A stretch of 32,713 nt of DNA. Origin: a virus. The notes beneath the pieces are model-generated. The model searched no databases, was not told the DNA's origin, and saw nothing but the letters and a program-made list of their open reading frames with translations. This document shows positions 4,329 to 32,713 of the stretch, piece after piece. Positions within the stretch are counted from its first letter, which is position 1, and every line of letters begins with the position of its first letter. The stretch lies in IMG/VR virus record IMGVR_UViG_3300002026_000105. One strand, given 5' to 3'. The position numbers were made by a program, and so were the translations under genes.

Positions 4329-4443
4329 TTTGTATCTCCTTTTTCTGACTTAAAATATGCTTTAGCATCTCTTCTCTCTCTTTCTCAGGTACATCAGGGT
4401 GTAATATCCTAATGGCCTCTCTTAACCTTTCCTCATTACTCAT
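4312..4443 (-). CDS. Hypothetical 43-aa protein (below the ORF-track cutoff)
   Basis: Hand translation gives MSNEERLREAIRILHPDVPEKEREEMLKHILSQKKEIQNVKQV. Its ATG overlaps the upstream stop (ATGA) and its end overlaps the fibre start by 17 nt. Confidence 0.4.
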   Translation of the reverse strand: MSNEERLREAIRILHPDVPEKEREEMLKHILSQKKEIQNVKQV

Positions 4444-16940: not shown

Positions 16941-16967
16941 CTTTAATAGAGAGTATACCCGTAGACG

Positions 16968-16995
16968 TAAAAAAAGAGACCCTTTCAGGTCTCTT
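16968..16995 (-). terminator. Intrinsic terminator after the major capsid gene
   Basis: Minus strand reads AAGAGACC-TGAAAG-GGTCTCTT followed by TTTTTTAC. Confidence 0.8.
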
Positions 16996-17038
16996 CAATT
17001 TTACCTAGCCAACGGCTGAGGTTCAATTTCTCATACAG

Positions 17039-17051
17039 TTATATATGCTCA
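17039..17051 (-). promoter_or_regulatory. Third copy of the TGAGCATATATAA core shared with the 46-bp repeat
   Basis: Exact 13-mer, 1 nt after the capsid stop codon. It is followed ~45 nt later by the terminator hairpin (stem at 16995-16974; T-run ends ~16968, ~63 nt from the inferred start). Confidence 0.3.
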
Positions 17052-25316: not shown

Positions 25317-25867
25317 TTTATCTCCTGTTTTACAATCTTGTAATTTTGTATTTCATAGCGTGCTAAAGTACAAAAGTCAAGATCACACCATGGGATGATG
25401 TAACCTTGACTTTTATTTGTTGTATATTCATTTGTGTGTCTAGTATATGGGAACTCTCCACTATTATCCCTCCATTTTCCATTTATTAGGTTTGCCTCTT
25501 TTTCTTTCATCCACTTTTTTAATGTTTTTCTTTCTAATAAATATGCTATTGCTGCTCCATTTTGACCATTCATATAATAAAGTATTTGGTCAGCCTTAGT
25601 CTTCCAAGCCCATCCTGGTGAATTAGTAGCTGAGCAACTCACTACCTCTAGAAATATAGCCTCGTGTATATTCCTAACTGTCTTTTGTTCTACCAGAACT
25701 ATTTTACCATAATTAGTATAGTGGTAGTCAATATCTAACTCTACCTGTTGTTTAGTGTGTGGTGCAATTTGGGTAATATTAGTACCAAATATATCCCTTA
25801 ATAAACCTGAACTTTCTTGCTTGTCTATCTCTTTTTGTCCATACTCAAAGTCTTCTTGATAACTCAT
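25313..25867 (-). CDS. PD-(D/E)XK-type nuclease candidate (184 aa)
   Basis: VELDIDY ... KIVLVEQK gives a D ... ExK arrangement on predicted strands. SD is GATGGAGGGTCA. Confidence 0.5.
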   Translation of the reverse strand: MSYQEDFEYGQKEIDKQESSGLLRDIFGTNITQIAPHTKQQVELDIDYHYTNYGKIVLVEQKTVRNIHEAIFLEVVSCSATNSPGWAWKTKADQILYYMNGQNGAAIAYLLERKTLKKWMKEKEANLINGKWRDNSGEFPYTRHTNEYTTNKSQGYIIPWCDLDFCTLARYEIQNYKIVKQEIK

Positions 25868-26908: not shown

Positions 26909-27106
26909 AAGAACTTAAGAACTTAAAACACTTACTTTTTACCTATTTTACTGTTCCCAATATATTCTCTTCTCTATATCTATAATATATATATTTATAA
27001 GTACTAAGTACTATTATATAATATATATATATATTATATAGACTTAGACAATCTAAAACAGTACTTATGATGTTTTTTCACAAGTACTAACAAGTTCTAA
27101 GTTCTT
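26909..27106. promoter_or_regulatory. Extremely AT-rich non-coding region bounded by inverted repeats; candidate replication origin and/or middle promoter region
   Basis: IR-L AAGAACTTAAGAACTT (26909-26924) is matched by IR-R AAGTTCTAAGTTCTT (27092-27106). There are four AGTACT sites (26999-27012 as a tandem AAGTACTAAGTACT, 27060-27065, 27082-27088) and long (TA)n runs at 26975-27043. The region lies immediately 3' of the primase-helicase gene. Confidence 0.45.
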
Positions 27107-27107
27107 G

Positions 27108-29099
27108 TCATATTACCTTGAAATCCTGTTGTAGATTACCAGTAATATAGTGACACTTACCGTTACTTTTTTTAACACTATATCCAGTAATACTATTGAA
27201 CTTTTTAGCTAATCCCTTCTGTGACAAGTATATTTTATTATATCCAATATATTTACTATAACTTACAAATCTATCAAATAAATCTGATGTGTTTATTGTT
27301 TCGTTATTACAGATATAATATGGGTGTCCAGCTAAGCTATTAGCTTCTTGACTATCTAACAACCACTGTGATACTATATCTAATCCTAATTCTATTTGTT
27401 CTTTTTTGGCAGAAGTCATAGGTATTTTTGTCCAGTCTCTTGATGATATATTTCTATTTAATAGATCATACATAAGCCTTGGTAATCCACCGTTATCAAT
27501 TTCTTTCCATAGATTACCAAAATAGATATGATCTTGAAGATAGGCATCACCACAATCTAAGATTAAGTAGCGTCTATCATCAGCAGATACAGGAGCTACC
27601 CAATCTTCGTTAGTTGTAAATATAAAAGATTTATGGTTCTTGCTTTCAAAAGTATCCTTGCCTTTGAAAGTTATCTCTTCTCTCCTTGATGTTATCATAT
27701 TTTTTAATCTAGATTCACTTTTTTTATCTCCACCCCACATAGCTTCATCTGAACATATTAAAAGTTTATTCATAAGGTGAGCGTTAAATCCTCCAACAAG
27801 ATCATCAATAGAAGATATTTCCATAAACATATCACCAAATAATCTAGAAAATACTTCAGAAAAGGTTCCCTTACCAGATCCAGATTTTCCTCTTATTGCA
27901 ACCGCTATTCCCATCTTATCACCAGGTTTTTGTATAATATGAGCCATCCAATCTAATAGGAACTCATATAATACTTTATCACCTTGACAAATATTATTCT
28001 GAATATGATGTCTGTAAATATCCCAAGAACCAGTAGTTTTTGGTTCTACTGGAAACCCCCTAAATAAGTTAAAAAATCTGGGAGATGTTTTATTTTTAGG
28101 ATCAAACACCAAACCTTCTAGACACTCTTGTGTATCAAACCAATCTACAAAAGGTTCTACTTTTACTTGGATAGTTTTCTTTCCAAATTGTTTTGTCTCT
28201 GTTGTATTAAGGTGAGAATATTTTTGAGCACCATTTATTTTGTTAAAAAATTGTTTTTGTTCTATATCGTATACCATAACTTGTCCACCAACTAAAACTT
28301 TAACAAGTCCAGAAAAAATAGTATGTTCTATCTCTTTTATTTCTTCAAACTTTCTTGGTTCTTTTCTATCAAACCTGTGAGTGCTCTTAATAATAGTAGA
28401 TACTTCTCTATCTGATAAAGGTTTACTTTGTGCTCTATTAAGGGTATCTAGAAAAGTTTCCATCTCTTCATCACTATTACCATTACTATGTAATGAACAA
28501 GCCCATCTAAACATAGTATCGTTTCTGCTACCTTGGTCAAAATTAAGAGGTATAGGTTCTTTTTTCTCTTCTTCTAGTATGAACCCATAAAGATCAGTAA
28601 GGATACTTTTTTCACCAGTACTCTTGTAAACTTGACTATTAGGGTTTCCAAAAAAGAAGCGAGCTGCGTCTTTAACTTGTTTATCAAAGAATGGGTACTT
28701 GGTAGTAAGTTTCCTTAACCACATGGCAACTTCCTGTTCTTTTAGTAATTGCTTTATAGGAAAATATACGTGATACTTGTCTCTAGCGGTCTTACCATCC
28801 TTCTCTTTCTGATGACTTTTAGATGTGGCTAAATAATAACTATAACCTAGGAACATTTTATTAAACTCTTTAATACCCACCCAATCCTTGGGGTCATCAG
28901 AGTGTGTATTATCAATATCTCCAAATAACCAATCTGTTGATATAAAGTTATTATTTGCCCTTTTATTATCCTTGAACTCTGACATCACATGGTCAAACTT
29001 TACTGTCTCTTTAAAATGGGCTAAACTATCTACCTCTACCTTATTAGGGTAATGGTTATTAAATTGTTCTCCACTCTTGTTACTTGTAAATAGTATCAT
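27108..29099 (-). CDS. Primase-helicase: N-terminal AEP (prim-pol) domain fused to D5/P4-type SF3 helicase (663 aa)
   Basis: AEP motifs are LFGDIDN and DKYHVYFPI. Walker A is AIRGKSGSGKGTFS and Walker B is LLICSDEA. Confidence 0.85.
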   Translation of the reverse strand: MILFTSNKSGEQFNNHYPNKVEVDSLAHFKETVKFDHVMSEFKDNKRANNNFISTDWLFGDIDNTHSDDPKDWVGIKEFNKMFLGYSYYLATSKSHQKEKDGKTARDKYHVYFPIKQLLKEQEVAMWLRKLTTKYPFFDKQVKDAARFFFGNPNSQVYKSTGEKSILTDLYGFILEEEKKEPIPLNFDQGSRNDTMFRWACSLHSNGNSDEEMETFLDTLNRAQSKPLSDREVSTIIKSTHRFDRKEPRKFEEIKEIEHTIFSGLVKVLVGGQVMVYDIEQKQFFNKINGAQKYSHLNTTETKQFGKKTIQVKVEPFVDWFDTQECLEGLVFDPKNKTSPRFFNLFRGFPVEPKTTGSWDIYRHHIQNNICQGDKVLYEFLLDWMAHIIQKPGDKMGIAVAIRGKSGSGKGTFSEVFSRLFGDMFMEISSIDDLVGGFNAHLMNKLLICSDEAMWGGDKKSESRLKNMITSRREEITFKGKDTFESKNHKSFIFTTNEDWVAPVSADDRRYLILDCGDAYLQDHIYFGNLWKEIDNGGLPRLMYDLLNRNISSRDWTKIPMTSAKKEQIELGLDIVSQWLLDSQEANSLAGHPYYICNNETINTSDLFDRFVSYSKYIGYNKIYLSQKGLAKKFNSITGYSVKKSNGKCHYITGNLQQDFKVI

Positions 29100-29239
29100 T
29101 CACACTCCTCTAAAGCTGATATTAAAATATCCTGTGCTTCTATTACTCTCTCTCCAATTTCAGGATCTACATGCTTGAGGTAGTTATCCTCAATGTCATA
29201 AAGTAAACCTAATACCTTGCTTAACTGTTCTCCGTTCAT
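29096..29239 (-). CDS. Hypothetical 47-aa protein, translationally coupled to the primase
   Basis: The internal ATG at 29239 has AAAGGAGTTAGT upstream. The longer track ORF would run through a terminator hairpin. Its stop overlaps the primase ATG (ATGA). Confidence 0.5.
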   Translation of the reverse strand: MNGEQLSKVLGLLYDIEDNYLKHVDPEIGERVIEAQDILISALEECE

Positions 29240-29254
29240 ACTAACTCCTTTGAA

Positions 29255-29300
29255 TAAAAAAAGCTTACCTAACCTCCTGGCGGGGAAGTTAAGTAAGCTT
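29255..29300 (-). terminator. Intrinsic terminator between the repeat-borne promoter and the replication operon
   Basis: Minus strand reads AAGCTTACTTAAC-(14 nt loop)-GTTAGGTAAGCTT followed by TTTTTATTC. The stem is 13 bp with one G-U pair. Confidence 0.7.
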
Positions 29301-29335
29301 GGATAGAATGTTTTATTATATGTCCGCCAACATAT
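29255..29335 (-). ncRNA. Candidate ~80-nt promoter-proximal transcript (leader/attenuator or small RNA), unit B
   Basis: The bounds are inferred from the TATAAT in the 46-bp repeat (29342-29347) and the terminator T-run. It contains a 5' hairpin (29318-29335) whose loop UGGCGG is complementary to CCGCCA in the terminator loop. Confidence 0.3.
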
Positions 29336-29337
29336 TG

Positions 29338-29383
29338 TACTATTATATATGCTCAATATATCTTGCGATAATAATGACGAATA
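29338..29383 (-). repeat. 46-bp perfect direct repeat, copy 1 (promoter-like, ends in TGAGCATATATAATAGTA)
   Basis: Identical to 30431..30476 by direct comparison. The minus strand contains TATAAT 4 nt from the repeat end. Confidence 0.9.
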
Positions 29384-29437
29384 GTTAAATATCTAATAAC
29401 TTTTTCTCTTTTTTTGTCAGTTTTAACTTTTTAGATA

Positions 29438-30103
29438 TCATATTTTATACCCCATAGTTTTAAGAGTATCTTTTATTTGTGCAGGATATCTTCCTCTTTC
29501 TATTTCTTCAACTATAAACTTTTGAACCCTATCATACTCTTCTATTTTTGAAGAATTATTTTTCATAATCCAGTCTCTTGGTGATAAATTATATTTTTCT
29601 TTACACTCAAAAGATGACATACCAGTTATAGCTTTATTCACCATATTTATTACTACACCAAGAGTTTTTTTAGCTCTTTCATCGGTTCCTGAAGTTTGAA
29701 ATATATCTGAAGCAAGTCTTTTATAGTCTATCTTTACTAGACCCCTTGTTGTATTATATGATCCAGTTTTTCTAATTTCTGGTAATACATCTTCAAATAC
29801 CCATCTTCTAAACTTTTTAGCTTCTTCTTTTCTAGACTTAAAAATGAGTGCATATAAGCCTGGTTCTGATACAAACCATGGTGTAGTTTTTTTATTCTGT
29901 TTATTATGTGGTGTATATGCGGGGTTACTAATAGTAAACCTGCATTTCCAATCCTCTTCTAGTCCATCCAAAGCTCTAGATATATTATTCAAATCCAGAA
30001 TCTGACATACATCAGATACGATAAACCATGGAGCTTGTTTTTCATCTAAAACTGCAGAAATACTAAAATCCTGGTTTTCATAAACACTAATTTCTTTTTT
30101 CAT
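29438..30103 (-). CDS. Bro-N domain protein (antirepressor/BRO family), 221 aa
   Basis: Matching segments are PWFIVSDVCQILDL.N, SEPGLYALIFKSRKEEAKKFRRWVFEDVLPEIRKTGSY. SD is AAAGGAGAAATAGT. Confidence 0.8.
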   Translation of the reverse strand: MKKEISVYENQDFSISAVLDEKQAPWFIVSDVCQILDLNNISRALDGLEEDWKCRFTISNPAYTPHNKQNKKTTPWFVSEPGLYALIFKSRKEEAKKFRRWVFEDVLPEIRKTGSYNTTRGLVKIDYKRLASDIFQTSGTDERAKKTLGVVINMVNKAITGMSSFECKEKYNLSPRDWIMKNNSSKIEEYDRVQKFIVEEIERGRYPAQIKDTLKTMGYKI

Positions 30104-30270
30104 ACTATTTCTCCTTTATGCTATTTACTATAAATATGCTTATTTAAGAGCTATTACTATATGATATAGTTCTTATTTAATAGCTTAGATTACTAATAGT
30201 AAAGTTAGCTTTAAAGGGCGGTAAAAGTTTTAACTACCTTAAAGGGTACCCACTCCACGTACACCCCTTA

Positions 30271-30287
30271 TATTCACCCGGTGAATA
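30271..30287. promoter_or_regulatory. Perfect 17-bp palindrome TATTCACC-C-GGTGAATA (operator-like)
   Basis: Read directly. It lies in the 245-nt untranslated region upstream of the Bro-N gene. Confidence 0.4.
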
Positions 30288-30299
30288 ATAGACTTCTAA

Positions 30300-30314
30300 G
30301 TTCATCCGATGAAC
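30300..30314. promoter_or_regulatory. Perfect 15-bp palindrome GTTCATC-C-GATGAAC (operator-like, related to 30271-30287)
   Basis: It shares the half-site TTCA(C/T)C with the first palindrome. The centres are 28 bp apart. Confidence 0.4.
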
Positions 30315-30330
30315 CTTGAGAAACTAATCT

Positions 30331-30349
30331 ATTGGACTCTGAGTCCAAT
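30331..30349. other. 19-nt inverted repeat ATTGGACTC-T-GAGTCCAAT directly downstream of a terminator
   Basis: Read directly. The arms are 9 bp. Confidence 0.5.
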
Positions 30350-30374
30350 AAAAAAGACACCCTTTCGAGTGTCT
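30350..30374 (-). terminator. Intrinsic terminator downstream of repeat copy 2
   Basis: Minus strand reads AGACAC-TCGAAAGG-GTGTCT followed by TTTTTTATT. It is similar in sequence to the capsid terminator. Confidence 0.65.
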
Positions 30375-30428
30375 AATAATGTAGTACTTGATGTTTCCCT
30401 GGTTATTTATTTATACACTAAATAAGGT
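30350..30428 (-). ncRNA. Candidate ~78-nt promoter-proximal transcript (small RNA or leader), unit A
   Basis: The bounds are inferred from TATAAT (30435-30440) and the terminator T-run. It contains no ORF with an SD. Confidence 0.3.
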
Positions 30429-30430
30429 GT

Positions 30431-30476
30431 TACTATTATATATGCTCAATATATCTTGCGATAATAATGACGAATA
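30431..30476 (-). repeat. 46-bp perfect direct repeat, copy 2
   Basis: Identical to 29338..29383. Confidence 0.9.
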
Positions 30477-30483
30477 ATGAAAA

Positions 30484-30648
30484 TTATCTTACTTTTATAT
30501 CTCTTTTACTAGAAATAAGTTTGAACAAATATTCTATATCTTCATCCTGGTTCTTAAGTATCTCTCTATAATTAGTGAGTTCTTCTTGGAGCTCTCTACA
30601 TTTGAGACCAAGAGCAAGCATTATTTCAACAATATCTTTATCTTTCAT
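30484..30648 (-). CDS. Hypothetical 54-aa protein (below the ORF-track cutoff)
   Basis: Hand translation gives MKDKDIVEIMLALGLKCRELQEELTNYREILKNQDEDIEYLFKLISSKRDIKVR. The ATG overlaps the upstream gene end by 11 nt. Confidence 0.4.
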   Translation of the reverse strand: MKDKDIVEIMLALGLKCRELQEELTNYREILKNQDEDIEYLFKLISSKRDIKVR

Positions 30649-30895
30649 TTTTCTTGGCCTCATACTCTTGTTTACTCTTGGCGGATATCTCTTCCTTGTG
30701 TTCTAGGTAATAAGCATGTTGGTAGGCTTTAAGTTTCTCTTTATTTTCTTTCCTCCACTCCTTGCCGTACTCAGGGTGTTCTCTCTGGTATTGTCTCATA
30801 TACTCTTTAATGCGTTCTTTATTAGCTTGTGTATAAGCCTTTAGTTCTTCTTTATGTTCTTTCCAATATTTTTTGCGATATTCCTTGCTTGCCAC
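30638..30895 (-). CDS. Lys/Glu/Tyr-rich repeat protein (85 aa from the GTG start)
   Basis: GAGGAGAATAAAG precedes the GTG at 30895. Degenerate repeats are present (K.Y...HKEELKAY, KEYMRQYQREH, KENKEKLKAYQHAY, EHKEEISAKSKQEY). Confidence 0.55.
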   Translation of the reverse strand: MASKEYRKKYWKEHKEELKAYTQANKERIKEYMRQYQREHPEYGKEWRKENKEKLKAYQHAYYLEHKEEISAKSKQEYEAKKNER

Positions 30896-31022
30896 CTTTA
30901 TTCTCCTCAGTATAAATATGCTTATCACGGTTAGCGATAAGCTCCTCTAACCAGTTTTCTACCTTTCTCCGTTCTTGAATAGCTTTATACTCTGAGACTA
31001 ATAATGCTTCTGTTATGCCCAT
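30852..31022 (-). CDS. Possible 56-aa ORF starting directly after late-motif copy 5 (no SD)
   Basis: Hand translation gives MGITEALLVSEYKAIQERRKVENWLEELIANRDKHIYTEENKGGKQGISQKILERT. It overlaps the next gene by 44 nt, and it is uncertain whether it is coding. Confidence 0.3.
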   Translation of the reverse strand: MGITEALLVSEYKAIQERRKVENWLEELIANRDKHIYTEENKGGKQGISQKILERT

Positions 31023-31025
31023 GAT

Positions 31026-31038
31026 ATATATAGTTATG
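31026..31038 (-). promoter_or_regulatory. Conserved motif CATAACTATATAT (copy 5), overlapping the HNH-AP2 stop codon
   Basis: Exact 13-mer, followed by ATC and then the ATG at 31022. Confidence 0.35.
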
Positions 31039-31468
31039 GAAAATTAAGAAAAGCTTCATCACCCCATAGTTCTCTTGCTTTTGCATCATAGGCTCTAGCA
31101 GCATCTTCTGGAGTAATATAACAACCTAAATATTCTTTTTTCAAACCATCTCTAATAGTAGCATACCATTTTTTTCCATTAAAACAAACTCCTTTATAGC
31201 CACTGGCATTTGAACATCTTAATGCTTCTTCCCTTTTCTTTTTACCATAATGGTGTAAATACTGATGATCACTTCTAGTCATACAAACAAGGTTTTCTGC
31301 TGTATTATTACTTGGATCTCCATCTAGATGATGTATTACCTGATGTTTGAATACTTTACATCCAGTAAGCTTTTCATAGACATAGACATGTTGTGATCCA
31401 TACTTTCCATTACTCCAATAACCATAATTTTTATACCACAATATCCCGTCATAATTTCTATTATCCAT
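31034..31468 (-). CDS. HNH homing endonuclease with AP2 domain (copy 2)
   Basis: 144-aa ORF with HHLDGDPSNNTAENLVCMTRSDHQYLH and GYKGVCFNGKKWYATI...LGCYITPEDAARAYDAKARELWGDEAFLNF. The ATG overlaps the upstream stop (TAATG). Confidence 0.85.
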   Translation of the reverse strand: MDNRNYDGILWYKNYGYWSNGKYGSQHVYVYEKLTGCKVFKHQVIHHLDGDPSNNTAENLVCMTRSDHQYLHHYGKKKREEALRCSNASGYKGVCFNGKKWYATIRDGLKKEYLGCYITPEDAARAYDAKARELWGDEAFLNFP

Positions 31469-31881
31469 TACTTACCACACCAATTTACTACACGATATTT
31501 AGGCATCACATTATAGAGTGAGCACATATTATTCGTGGGGTCATATACCCCAAATCCACCAGCATCCACAAGAACATGTAAAGAGTTTTGCTTGATCAAT
31601 AATACAGGGAGGAGTTGGGTATTCTCATATCCTGCCTCTTTGGCTAGAGATATAAAGAGGACTGACATATCGATACAGACACCTGACCCTTTTGCTAAAG
31701 TCTCTTCAGGTGTTTGAACCTCATCTATAGTTCTCACCACTCCGTCTTCATACTCTATGTTTTGGTATATCCACCTGTTGATATCAGGGAGAGAATAGAA
31801 GCGAGCAGGTCTATCTACCTGGTGAGGTACAGAGGTGCAAGAGATAAATAGTACCGATAAAAGAACTAAAAAATATTTCAT
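31468..31881 (-). CDS. Secreted lipoprotein with transglutaminase-like cysteine-protease core (137 aa)
   Basis: Signal plus lipobox-like MKYFLVLLSVLFIS|C. A Cys-His-Asp pattern is present: GSGVCIDMSVLFISLAKEAG (C69), LHVLV (H102), VYDPT (D114). Confidence 0.65.
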   Translation of the reverse strand: MKYFLVLLSVLFISCTSVPHQVDRPARFYSLPDINRWIYQNIEYEDGVVRTIDEVQTPEETLAKGSGVCIDMSVLFISLAKEAGYENTQLLPVLLIKQNSLHVLVDAGGFGVYDPTNNMCSLYNVMPKYRVVNWCGK

Positions 31882-32269: not shown

Positions 32270-32665
32270 CTATAAACTATGCCACACAAGTAGCGCCGTT
32301 TCACCTAAAATAGCTACTAATAAAACTTTATTTAAAAGTTTTGATAGTTTGAAGGATCTTTCTAAGCTTTGAAACTGCATCAGTTGATCTTTCGATATCT
32401 TTTCTAGCTGTGTCAATTGCAATTGATCTTCTTTTATCACTCTCTTCATATCCTCTGATAATTTGCTCAAGTTCTCCAATCTGACCAAGTCTATAAGTCT
32501 GACTTTTTCTAAGTCTGTCAATTGAATCTGAAGACTCCTGTTCGAGTCTTCTATAGTCTTCAATTGATACAAACCTTGATCTGCTAATTCCGATAAAGAC
32601 TCCTGAGGAAATAACCACACCGAGCACAAAAGAAAGAAACACCAGTAAAATAGTTTTTTGCACAT
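32270..32665 (-). CDS. Envelope protein: signal/lipobox-like N-terminus, Leu-heptad coiled coil, hydrophobic C-terminus (131 aa)
   Basis: The ATG lies 2 nt after the HNH-AP2 stop in the closed circle, with AAGGAATAATA upstream. The N-terminus is MCKKLFYWCFFLLC|S and the C-terminus is LLNKVLLVAILGETALLVW. Confidence 0.55.
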   Translation of the reverse strand: MCKKLFYWCFFLLCSVWLFPQESLSELADQGLYQLKTIEDSNRSLQIQLTDLEKVRLIDLVRLENLSKLSEDMKRVIKEDQLQLTQLEKISKDQLMQFQSLERSFKLSKLLNKVLLVAILGETALLVWHSL

Positions 32666-32699
32666 TATTATTCCTTAAAATTAAGATAAGCTTCTTCAC
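32328..32699 (-). CDS. Alternative-frame ORF: N-terminal TM plus charged helical domain (123 aa, GTG start), i-spanin-like architecture
   Basis: It overlaps 32270..32665 on the same strand in a different frame for 338 nt. The TM segment is TILLVFLSFVLGVVISSGVFIGI. Only GTG starts are available (32699, inside the HNH gene, or 32663). Confidence 0.3.
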   Translation of the reverse strand: MKKLILILRNNNVQKTILLVFLSFVLGVVISSGVFIGISRSRFVSIEDYRRLEQESSDSIDRLRKSQTYRLGQIGELEQIIRGYEESDKRRSIAIDTARKDIERSTDAVSKLRKILQTIKTFK

Positions 32700-32713
32700 C
32701 CCATAACTCTAGG
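32623..32713. repeat. Second copy of the 91-nt terminal overlap (identical to 1..91)
   Basis: Exact identity to bases 1-91 by direct comparison. Confidence 0.95.

Follow-up and report, generated by a model that had tools for sequence, protein, structure and literature searches.

The leader of the primase operon in a 32,713-nucleotide stretch of viral DNA (IMG/VR record IMGVR_UViG_3300002026_000105; the whole stretch is called the window below) carries two hairpins with complementary loops, the second of which has the form of an intrinsic terminator placed directly before a ribosome-binding site (RBS). It is proposed that this leader is a cis-acting transcription attenuator of the replication operon, in which a kissing-loop pseudoknot tunes read-through; the probability of this reading is put at roughly 0.45. 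The features concerned are the following.

29338..29383, minus strand: copy 1 of a 46-nt exact repeat (family D6), candidate promoter region, with TATAAT at 29347-29342
29345..29353, minus strand: motif AGCATATAT (consensus AGCATATWT), candidate core promoter element of the phage group
29335-29318, minus strand: hairpin H1, ATATGT-TGGCGG-ACATAT, with loop UGGCGG (29329-29324) and stem AUAUGU/ACAUAU
29301..29317, minus strand: A/U-rich, single-stranded linker of 17 nt that joins H1 to the terminator
29261..29300, minus strand: predicted intrinsic terminator hairpin with 17 bp in the stem and CCGCCA (29283-29278) as the 6-nt loop
29253..29262, minus strand: U tract UUUUUUUAUU, which begins with two U that are paired in the stem
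29245-29250, minus strand: Shine-Dalgarno sequence (SD) AAGGAG of the 47-aa ORF, 5 nt past the U run
29096..29239, minus strand: 47-aa ORF, conserved in relatives (motif LEDNYLKH in L008)
27108..29099, minus strand: primase-helicase of 663 aa (Pfam PriCT_1, DUF5906/VapE-like; PHROGs DNA primase/helicase)
30355..30476, minus strand: sister module, consisting of repeat copy 2, a leader of ~55 nt, the terminator AGACACUC-GAAA-GGGUGUCU and then U6

H1, the terminator and the complementarity of their loops had been described in the initial annotation, and all three are present at the coordinates it gave. Its strong hairpin and T run before the SD also stand. However, the stem is not of 13 bp but of 17 bp when two G-U pairs are included, with six G-C pairs (terminator scan and fold). 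The uninterrupted run of seven T spans 29262-29256, and two of these lie inside the stem. The folding energy of the terminator hairpin is -23.5 kcal/mol; that of H1 is -4.1 kcal/mol, and the minimum-energy fold adds one U-G pair to it. Here and in the relatives a stable, G+C-containing stem-loop is followed by a U tract, as is typical of intrinsic terminators, and the 29261..29300 hairpin would be expected to act as one in the host. The window has only four terminator-like hairpins on its coding strand, and this one is much the strongest. The fold of the leader, for which the initial annotation had suggested a check, is better than that of shuffled sequences (z = -3.6), and none of 200 shuffles was equally good.

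Transcription probably starts near repeat copy 1, judging from the TATAAT at 29347-29342 and the strand-specific motif, and H1 would then form the 5′ end of the transcript or lie close to it. The leader length of ~80 nt depends on this predicted start. The 46-nt repeat is present in two exact copies, where none is expected; copy 2 lies at 30431-30476. The sequences 3′ of the two copies are unrelated, and a terminator follows each. The consensus AGCATATWT was found seven times against 1.2 expected, every time on the coding strand, and none of 100 shuffles reached seven. Most of these matches sit immediately 5′ of genes or leaders, and the motif also lies 5′ of the leaders of the relatives L008, L096, L098, L028, L011 and L112. 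A simple sigma-70 scan called no -35/-10 promoter at the leader TATAAT. The sister module may be taken as context for a reading of such units as a promoter plus a proximal terminator; loop-loop complementarity is absent from its own terminator. Cross-talk with the sister leader was also considered: the only match is the 5-nt CCGCC, outside a loop, and was judged to be due to chance.

The 47-aa ORF begins with an ATG at 29239. In the ATGA at 29099-29096 its stop codon shares bases with the start codon of the primase, which suggests that the two genes are translationally coupled. The primase-helicase is the sole recognisable replication gene, and almost all of the other proteins of the phage group are without recognisable function. 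Two further candidate elements of the leader were rejected: pairing of the linker, as an anti-SD, with the SD is unconserved, and so is, in the relatives, the mini-ORF AUGUUGGCGGACAUAUAA in H1, which might have encoded a leader peptide.

Inside the window, CCGCCA or its complement occurs five times on both strands together, against 1.4 expected. Two of these occurrences make up the H1-terminator pair, 46 nt apart; the other three are all in coding sequence, and none stands out as a target. The two GC-rich hexamers are rare in this genome, which has 35% GC. Only 0.4% of dinucleotide shuffles reached a 6-nt complement of the terminator loop within the preceding 100 nt. The loop-loop duplex UGGCGG:CCGCCA has an energy of -12.4 kcal/mol, and in a nascent window RNA that ends before the 3′ arm of the terminator this helix is the minimum-energy structure.

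The initial annotation had proposed conservation or covariation of the two hexamers in relatives as a test of the pairing. The pairing does recur, in different letters, in five further lineages (L008; L096; L098/L028/L012; L011; L112), and compensatory changes were found within one of them. The primases of these five more distant loci are only 36-61% identical to that of the window, and the loci are most likely spirochaete phages or prophages. They share the layout of a hairpin, a terminator abutting the SD, and a small ORF or the primase, so that a strong terminator immediately ahead of the primase operon's RBS is a conserved feature. In every lineage, unpaired nucleotides of the terminator (loop or bulge) are complementary over 6-9 nt to an upstream leader loop or linker. 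The pairings, upstream partner first, are as follows.

Window: UGGCGG/CCGCCA
L008: UUGCGG/CCGCAA
L096: CGGCAU/AUGCCG
L098: CCCAUAUC/GAUAUGGG
L012: UCCGUAUC/GAUACGGA
L011: UCGUUC/GAACGA
L112: two 9-mers

Taken lineage by lineage, shuffling gave p values of 0.0002 to 0.057, and Fisher's combined p was 1.5e-6 for five independent lineages. The longest match in L112 is 9 nt (p = 0.007), and a second match of 9 nt exists there. As a control, 37 distinct strong terminators from all fetched loci were compared. A complement of at least 6 nt was found for 10 of them, seven of which belong to primase leaders; among the non-primase terminators the figure was 3/30. All pairs of the 7-bp kissing helix are kept in lineage D (100%), with one compensatory change from A-U to G-C; H1 of this lineage carries one compensatory change too. 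With six lineages to draw on, several of them single sequences, the formal support for covariation is thin, and 55 of 500 shuffles attained the observed score. Four other contigs with an identical primase have a leader that is 100% identical and is uninformative for covariation; close variants were absent.

The partners are separated by ~40 to ~55 nt across the lineages. In L008 the upstream partner lies in a second hairpin that is not the positional equivalent of H1 in the window, and in the minimum-energy fold UUGCGG is partly buried within a longer stem. The comparison of UGGCGG with UUGCGG as a strict positional covariation was dropped, since the alignment of the two leaders is ambiguous as to the counterpart of H1. 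The leader is not present in all primase relatives: L022, L016/17/21/27, L023-26, L037, L227, L228 and L007 are without it, and the L230 locus is cut within the hairpin. Distant relatives of the primase that come from Firmicutes and from gut metagenomes (L043 and the like) were rejected as members. At these L043-type loci the terminator lies ~220 nt upstream, is apparently bidirectional, stands beside repeats and a divergent gene, and shows no loop complementarity.

In the minimum-energy folds the upstream partner lies inside the H1 loop in the window, L096, L098/L028/L012 and L011, and the kissing duplexes have energies of -7.7 to -12.4 kcal/mol across lineages. In the three lineages with an apical-loop contact, linker length (17, 14 and 19 nt) rises and falls with that of the helix stack (30, 26 and 36 bp); in those of the bulge type (L098, L011, L112), H1 is about as long as the bulge is high on the stem of the terminator. 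This linker and helix geometry is consistent with an intramolecular contact. The pairing is Watson-Crick, spans 6-9 bp (less than one helical turn) and covaries, and a kissing-loop pseudoknot is predicted in all six lineages.

The initial annotation had offered an attenuator, an antitermination switch or a small RNA as possible readings. The classical form of the switch does not hold, because there is no conserved antiterminator that sequesters the 5′ arm of the terminator. Nascent folds truncated before the 3′ arm were searched for a mutually exclusive antiterminator, and none was conserved: the number of paired 5′-arm positions was 0/17 in the window, 0/14 in L011 and 6-7/15, by weak local pairing, in L008, L098 and L012. 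L096 alone shows a longer pairing of the 5′ arm, which is unconserved.

The proposed attenuator would instead work as follows. Transcription would begin at the repeated promoter region, and H1 would form first. The stable terminator would form next, with a U tract ending 5 nt before the RBS. Since this terminator abuts the RBS downstream of the promoter, every transcript from the repeat would have to read through it for the primase to be expressed. The H1 loop and the terminator loop (in some relatives a bulge or internal loop on the 5′ side) would make a kissing pseudoknot of 6-8 bp. The terminator-side partner would be transcribed at least 17 nt ahead of the 3′ arm, and the pairing could therefore exist before RNA polymerase arrives at the U tract. 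It would thus be in a position to set or modulate the ratio of terminated to read-through transcripts; both the size and the direction of this effect are inferred. In the favoured direction, a kissing helix formed beforehand would close the 5′ arm of the terminator into a ring, the U-tract-proximal pairs of a stem of more than one turn would form slowly, and termination would be reduced. Occupancy of a loop would restore full termination; candidate occupants are a protein, for instance a product of the operon, or another RNA, for instance the terminated leader. This ring argument is a geometric estimate, neither computed nor published. The resulting model is a "topological" antiterminator: the kissing helix shares no nucleotides with the stem but delays its formation through the ring, termination depends on the contact, and a factor that binds a loop, perhaps an operon product or the terminated leader RNA, would feed back on the dosage of the replication genes. 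It is put forward tentatively, with the odds against it.

The same folds also suit a rival explanation. On the terminator side only loop or bulge nucleotides make the contact, and those of the stem are untouched. Because only unpaired nucleotides are used, the kissing pairing can coexist thermodynamically with the terminator hairpin, and it might leave termination unaffected. The hairpin would then be a constitutive partial terminator that lowers primase expression by a fixed amount, and the kissing fold would provide a compact, nuclease-resistant 5′ UTR or short RNA without any switching. The lack of competition for the stem and of a conserved alternative antiterminator speaks for this explanation. 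In two further modules of the window (17049, 30446) a terminator follows the AGCATATAT motif by 60-90 nt and loop complementarity is lacking; therefore, a proximal terminator can exist here without a kissing loop. However, a stabilising role alone leaves unexplained why the partner always lies within the terminator and why the terminator always abuts the replication RBS, and a 17-bp hairpin is very stable unaided. A purely constitutive terminator is regarded as unlikely.

A dual-function RNA is less likely again. Here the terminated leader of ~80 nt would act as a small RNA that kisses nascent or read-through leaders in trans and so gives dosage feedback on the replication genes. Mutually complementary loops do permit two molecules to pair hand in hand, and plentiful short RNA is to be expected from a strong terminator close to the promoter. 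Precedents are Gifsy-1 IsrK and the P4 CI RNA (PMC4825925), and the gated operon is a replication operon, as in P4. Nevertheless, intramolecular pairing should beat pairing in trans, and the scaling of linker and helix lengths is what would be expected of an intramolecular contact. Nor does the genome offer any other conspicuous target for either hexamer, the three further occurrences being in coding sequence.

The remaining explanations are improbable to different degrees. RNase III cleaves loop-loop complexes, such as those of S. aureus RNAIII with its targets, and the leader could be a processing site for it: H1, the kissing helix and the terminator would form a coaxial duplex of ~30 bp whose cleavage sets the stability or translation of the read-through mRNA. 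The stacks of 26-36 bp in the apical-loop lineages would suit such a substrate, but the bulge-type lineages L098, L011 and L112 form no simple coaxial stack, and sequence-level evidence for a site is nil. This explanation is considered improbable.

Still less credence is given to a countertranscript target, in which a plus-strand antisense RNA would bind the leader loops and induce or prevent termination. In pT181 and pIP501 the RBS of the replication gene is directly preceded by a terminator, which is the layout seen here, and a single sigma-70-like site on the plus strand (29099-29128) would yield an antisense transcript. However, promoter-like matches are no commoner than in shuffles, the phage motif AGCATATWT is absent from the plus strand, and the complement of H1 has no U run after it. 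Moreover, an antisense RNA does not require the conserved mutual complementarity of the sense loops. An element acting at the DNA level, with hexamers and hairpins as protein half-sites or as single-strand hairpins of an origin beside the primase gene, is just as improbable: complementarity in RNA is indeed an inverted repeat in DNA, and replication origins are often found next to initiator genes, but the variable spacing misfits a fixed protein geometry, the half-site letters differ wholly between lineages, both partners lie in hairpin loops, and the U tract and SD are confined to the coding strand.

Neither leader attenuators nor kissing loops are new in themselves. A conserved contact between a 5′ loop and a terminator loop without a competing antiterminator is absent from Rfam, and the literature searches gave no description of one. 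At the gathering score the leader has no match in Rfam, the cobalamin riboswitch (RF00174 clan) included, and at E values up to 5 only three chance-level matches were obtained (cyano-S1, a snoRNA and FTX). The c4 family was likewise unmatched at E up to 5. In P1 c4 and P4 CI a processed RNA of ~70-80 nt carries a′ and b′ sites that match sites of its own transcript; complementary sites within one transcript do exist in the leader. A blastn search of positions 27100-31500 against GenBank phages gave a single short chance-level match. Exact-pattern scans of IMG/VR returned zero matches for the repeat core and for the conserved 3′ portion of leaders of the L098 type; the pattern TTGAGCATATATA...ACAATAT gave three matches in unrelated contexts, which were discarded. 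If the proposed attenuator's contact alters termination, an intrinsic terminator would be controlled by tertiary structure or topology, not by a competing secondary structure. The module would then be compact (~80 nt), reprogrammable in sequence and usable in synthetic gene control. The leader would also give a first look at replication control in uncultured phages or prophages, apparently of spirochaetes.

Several known systems resemble the leader in part. At lambda pR'-tR' (6S RNA), with its Q antitermination, and at HK022 put, a constitutive promoter is closely followed by a terminator and the nascent RNA right after the promoter is structured, as is proposed here. Unlike in lambda, the phage ORFs scanned gave no recognisable Q-like or N-like protein, and put elements are not known to be defined by complementarity of a loop to a terminator.

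The corrinoid (cobalamin) riboswitch is an intramolecular parallel in that the loop of an upstream hairpin kisses that of a hairpin in the expression platform. Its L5-L13 kissing loop decides regulation, also in transcriptional versions that bear a terminator (PMC10327014). Unlike the riboswitch, the leader has neither a cobalamin aptamer nor an Rfam match, and its nucleotides are unconserved between lineages, so that a ligand pocket is unlikely. The partner also differs: in the leader it is the terminator itself, whereas in the riboswitch it is the P13 helix, which competes with an antiterminator.

In P4 immunity, the CI RNA pairs with seqA and seqC of its own transcript and stops expression of the replication operon (PMC4825925). 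P4 CI and P1 c4 share with the leader a replication operon that contains a primase, premature termination in an untranslated leader, and complementary sense segments (PMC4825925 and references 45-47 therein). The P4 regulator, however, is a processed RNA that acts in trans, unlike the cis contact proposed here. Termination in P4 follows a block in translation and involves Rho-dependent sites, whereas in the leader the terminator is intrinsic, its U tract is perfect, and the predicted loop-loop contact is of 6-8 bp.

Gifsy-1 IsrK is a prophage system with a promoter-proximal Rho-independent terminator, where one promoter gives both a short RNA and a read-through mRNA (PMC4825925). The promoter-proximal intrinsic terminator and the translationally coupled downstream genes are common to both (PMC4825925). 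IsrK differs in that it opens a translationally inactive fold in trans; no kissing of its terminator loop is described, and the sequences are unrelated.

Plasmid systems offer further likenesses. In ColIb-P9 repZ, pairing of a GC-rich loop gives a pseudoknot and a leader ORF is translationally coupled to rep (PMC8053102 and references 49-51 therein). The initiator is controlled at the level of the leader in pT181, pIP501 and ColIb-P9 repZ, and a terminator or structure stands just ahead of the RBS, as here (PMC8053102). The probable coupling of the 47-aa ORF to the replication gene through the ATGA at 29099-29096 resembles that of the small ORF in ColIb-P9 and IncB repZ. Unlike in repZ, the partner of H1 is a terminator loop that precedes both the primase start, by ~180 nt, and the SD of the 47-aa ORF. 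For an antisense promoter of the pT181 and pIP501 kind, the scan of the leader region gave only the chance-level site at 29099-29128. A likeness on the terminator side is OxyS, whose terminator loop pairs with fhlA (PMC11979758): there, as in other sRNAs that use terminator loops, exposed loop nucleotides of a Rho-independent terminator are the kissing partner (PMC11979758). Those RNAs pair in trans, between molecules, whereas the leader carries its partner in the same RNA.

The leader of the replication operon is laid out on the minus strand as follows.

29383-29338, minus: 46-nt sequence containing TATAAT (29347-29342), with an exact second copy at 30476-30431
29335-29318, minus: hairpin H1, AUAUGU-UGGCGG-ACAUAU
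Between H1 and the terminator hairpin, minus: A/U-rich linker of 17 nt
29300-29261, minus: terminator hairpin, 17-bp stem including two G-U pairs
29283-29278, minus: 6-nt terminator loop, CCGCCA
After the terminator hairpin, minus: seven consecutive U, then AUUCA
29250-29245, minus: SD (AAGGAG) of a 47-aa ORF
29239, minus: start ATG of the 47-aa ORF; the ORF's stop codon and the primase start overlap (ATGA)
27108-29099, minus: primase-helicase of 663 aa with PriCT_1 and DUF5906/VapE-like domains

The hairpin at 29300-29261 is detected by a terminator scan and folds by itself at -23.5 kcal/mol, while the whole leader reaches -31.9 kcal/mol (z = -3.6 against shuffles). The genome's coding strand has only four terminator-like hairpins, and this one is by far the strongest. 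The initial annotation was right about a strong hairpin and T-run before the SD; the stem, given there as 13 bp, is 17 bp long. Its second proposal, that the H1 loop is complementary to CCGCCA in the terminator loop, is borne out when the minus strand is read. Of dinucleotide shuffles, 0.4% produce a complement of 6 nt between the terminator loop and the preceding 100 nt. Counting both strands, the window has five occurrences of CCGCCA or its complement (1.4 expected), and the UGGCGG/CCGCCA pair accounts for two of these. H1 also contains a mini-ORF, AUG UUG GCG GAC AUA UAA (29316-29333, minus), which would be leaderless if transcription started at 29333; no conservation of it was found in the relatives' leaders.

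We infer that the 46-nt repeat is a promoter. It is identical at two places that are followed by unrelated sequences, and a terminator lies within 60-90 nt downstream of each copy. A simple sigma-70 scan called no -35/-10 pair at TATAAT. The repeat contains the motif AGCATATWT, which has seven matches in the window against 1.2 expected, all on the coding strand, a count reached by no shuffle.

4353-4361, minus: AGCATATWT
17041-17049, minus: AGCATATWT
25539-25547, minus: AGCATATWT
29345-29353, minus: AGCATATWT
30132-30140, minus: AGCATATWT
30438-30446, minus: AGCATATWT
30914-30922, minus: AGCATATWT

The majority of copies are found either 20-25 nt ahead of a start codon or where a leader begins, and the motif also precedes the corresponding leaders in distant relatives. 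AGCATATWT is a candidate promoter core for this phage group and has no obvious -35 element. Transcription could start at ~29336 (from TATAAT) or at ~29361 (from a TATTAT farther upstream), and from either position the transcript would include both H1 and the terminator. The interval between terminator and SD is too small to hold a promoter. A strong predicted terminator separates the replication operon from all possible promoters.

Two further modules of this kind were seen. The sister leader behind repeat copy 2 (30104-30430, minus) has a terminator with a GAAA loop (30374-30355), followed by four or five further hairpins in a row and then the Bro-N/Ant-like gene; its 333 nt fold with z = -3.98, and it could be a second structured regulatory RNA. 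The third module (16950-17049, minus) has AGCATATAT directly after the stop codon of a 462-aa gene, and a terminator ~45 nt beyond it, GAGACC-UGAAAG-GGUCUC + U7 (16993-16976).

The window is most likely a complete phage genome of ~32.6 kb, circularly assembled or terminally redundant, since the first 91 of its 32,713 bases are identical to the last 91 (1-91 and 32623-32713). Its GC content is ~35%, and the minus strand carries all long ORFs. Besides the primase-helicase, a large terminase, HNH endonucleases and a Bro-N/Ant-like protein (29438-30103) are recognisable. Two paralogous HNH(-AP2) endonuclease genes (46-525 and 31034-31468) share 71-84% DNA identity, and a 748-aa ORF that weakly matches a family of head-fibre proteins contains tandem repeats of ~102 nt each (2063-2680). 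The closest named relatives in the primase search, metagenome-assembled genomes of Spirochaetia and Spirochaetaceae, suggest that the host is a spirochaete.

Approximately 230 loci were gathered by the primase search, by look-ups of the relatives' contigs and by scans of three collections. Four other contigs with an identical primase are uninformative, as their leader is 100% identical. The layout is shared by five further lineages, whose primases are only 36-61% identical to that of the window: L008/L009/L018, L096/L097, L098/L028/L012, L011/L150 and L112 (handles of contigs fetched through the primase). In each, at least one hairpin is followed by a long terminator hairpin and then an SD, which belongs to a small ORF or to the primase itself. 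The U run comprises four (L112) to seven U and ends 2-7 nt before the SD. L112, a contig of a Spirochaetales genome assembly, has in its leader region (1330-1505, fold z = -6.0) AAGCATATTT and then a terminator-like hairpin of 26 bp that abuts the primase SD. L098 (1760-1810) and L028 (1590-1640) carry a promoter-like GAGCATATTT and, almost at once, a small terminator (GUCUCCUGUCU...GGGAGAC + U run), which adjoins the promoter motif of the primase leader on its upstream side. Another branch (L023-L026, L037, L228) carries another kind of leader before the primase gene: ~60 nt upstream of the primase start, a hairpin (AUCCUCC ... GGAGGAU) encloses the SD, with two to three tandem 21-nt repeats (GAGAGAAGAATCTTCCTTCTA) upstream.

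In every lineage with the shared layout, an upstream leader segment can base-pair with unpaired nucleotides of the terminator hairpin.

Complementary segments in the leaders, with shuffle p values
Window: upstream UGGCGG, terminator CCGCCA; p = 0.004
L008: upstream UUGCGG, terminator CCGCAA; p = 0.057
L096: upstream CGGCAU, terminator AUGCCG; p = 0.011
L098: upstream CCCAUAUC, terminator GAUAUGGG; p = 0.002
L012: upstream UCCGUAUC, terminator GAUACGGA; p = 0.0002
L011: upstream UCGUUC, terminator GAACGA; p = 0.019
L112, first match: upstream GAACUCGGA, terminator apical loop UCCGAGUUC
L112, second match: upstream GGUUGAACC, terminator internal loop GGUUCAACC

Fisher's combined p for five independent lineages is 1.5e-6. 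In L112, the longest match of 9 nt has p = 0.007, and the second, non-overlapping match is also 9 nt long. As an empirical control, each distinct strong terminator of the fetched loci (37 altogether) was examined: a complement of at least 6 nt was present in ten, seven of them primase leaders, and in 3 of the 30 other terminators. In the MFE folds, the upstream partner lies in the H1 loop in the window, L096, L098/L028/L012 and L011, and in the window and L096 both partners are whole 6-nt hairpin loops. L008 is a weaker case, since its MFE stem takes in some of the hexamer and the partner belongs to a second hairpin. The 7-bp kissing helix of L098/L028/L012 is paired in all three aligned sequences and includes one compensatory A-U to G-C change, with another in H1; 55 of 500 shuffles score at least as well, the formal statistics being weak with three sequences. 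Loop-loop duplex energies range from -7.7 to -12.4 kcal/mol. The initial annotation would have been undermined by hexamers that were neither conserved nor covarying in relatives. The pairing is instead kept in five further lineages with differing sequences, which indicates that it is under selection.

The predicted kissing-loop pseudoknot, which joins the terminator to the upstream hairpin, is of two structural types. In the apical type (window, L008, L096), the terminator partner is the apical 6-nt loop and the linkers are long (17, 14 and 19 nt), scaling with the sum of H1, kissing helix and terminator stem (30, 26 and 36 bp); this would be the span that a single strand needs across a coaxial stack. 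In the bulge type (L098/L028/L012, L011), the terminator contributes as partner a 5'-side bulge of 6-7 nt, which lies beyond 14-15 bp of stem and is followed by a short apical hairpin, and the linker is only 6-8 nt. Here H1 roughly equals the lower terminator stem in length in L098/L028/L012 and falls somewhat short of it in L011, which is compatible with the helices lying side by side. Both geometric patterns, from few cases, would favour an intramolecular over an intermolecular contact.

The reading we prefer, at a probability of roughly 0.45, is that the leader is a cis-acting attenuator in which the kissing contact sets the ratio of terminated to read-through transcripts, because the terminator gates the operon, the pseudoknot links it to H1, and the terminator-side partner is in every case transcribed before the 3' arm. 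The structural core is well supported by the comparisons, and the regulatory meaning is plausible. That the contact lowers termination is the direction we favour, as a distinctly speculative one. The kissing helix would close a ring of H1 stem, linker, terminator 5' arm and the helix itself, around whose strand the 3' arm, tethered to RNA polymerase, would have to wind ~1.5 turns. By a rough estimate, the 17-nt linker of the window would be too short to absorb this winding for the last few U-tract-proximal pairs, which are those that matter for termination. A factor occupying one loop might then restore termination and could feed back on gene dosage.

Among the alternatives, the leader may be a constitutive partial terminator whose fold serves stability alone. 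When nascent RNA was folded up to the terminator loop in the window and relatives, no conserved antiterminator was found: the terminator 5' arm is paired at 0/17 positions in the window and 0/14 in L011, weakly and inconsistently in most other lineages, and over a longer, non-conserved stretch in L096 only. At this stage, the UGGCGG:CCGCCA helix is the minimum-energy structure in the window. The leader may also double as a short RNA with a function in trans, comparable to Gifsy-1 IsrK and P4 CI RNA (PMC4825925), or the coaxial stacking may create an RNase III site. A further rival makes the leader a target of antisense RNA; nothing in the window points to an antisense promoter: promoter-like matches are at chance level, and the plus strand lacks any AGCATATWT. 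A DNA element (protein half-sites or origin hairpins) is disfavoured because partner spacing varies from ~40 to ~55 nt and the partners lie in coding-strand hairpin loops followed by a U tract and an SD.

Rfam has no family matching the leader, and sequence comparison points to a real, conserved and undescribed element. By the tests run, it belongs to none of the families to which it can be compared. Exposed terminator-loop nucleotides serve as a kissing partner in trans in OxyS-fhlA (PMC11979758). In logic, the leader resembles P4 immunity, where premature termination shuts the phage replication operon via complementary segments of one sense transcript (PMC4825925). Plasmid replication control through leader attenuation and pseudoknots is likewise similar (PMC8053102 and its references). 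The system that the leader would work most like is the corrinoid riboswitch, in which L5-L13 kissing connects the regulatory hairpin with a domain upstream of it (PMC10327014); the phage leader is without an aptamer, and its kissing partner is the terminator itself.
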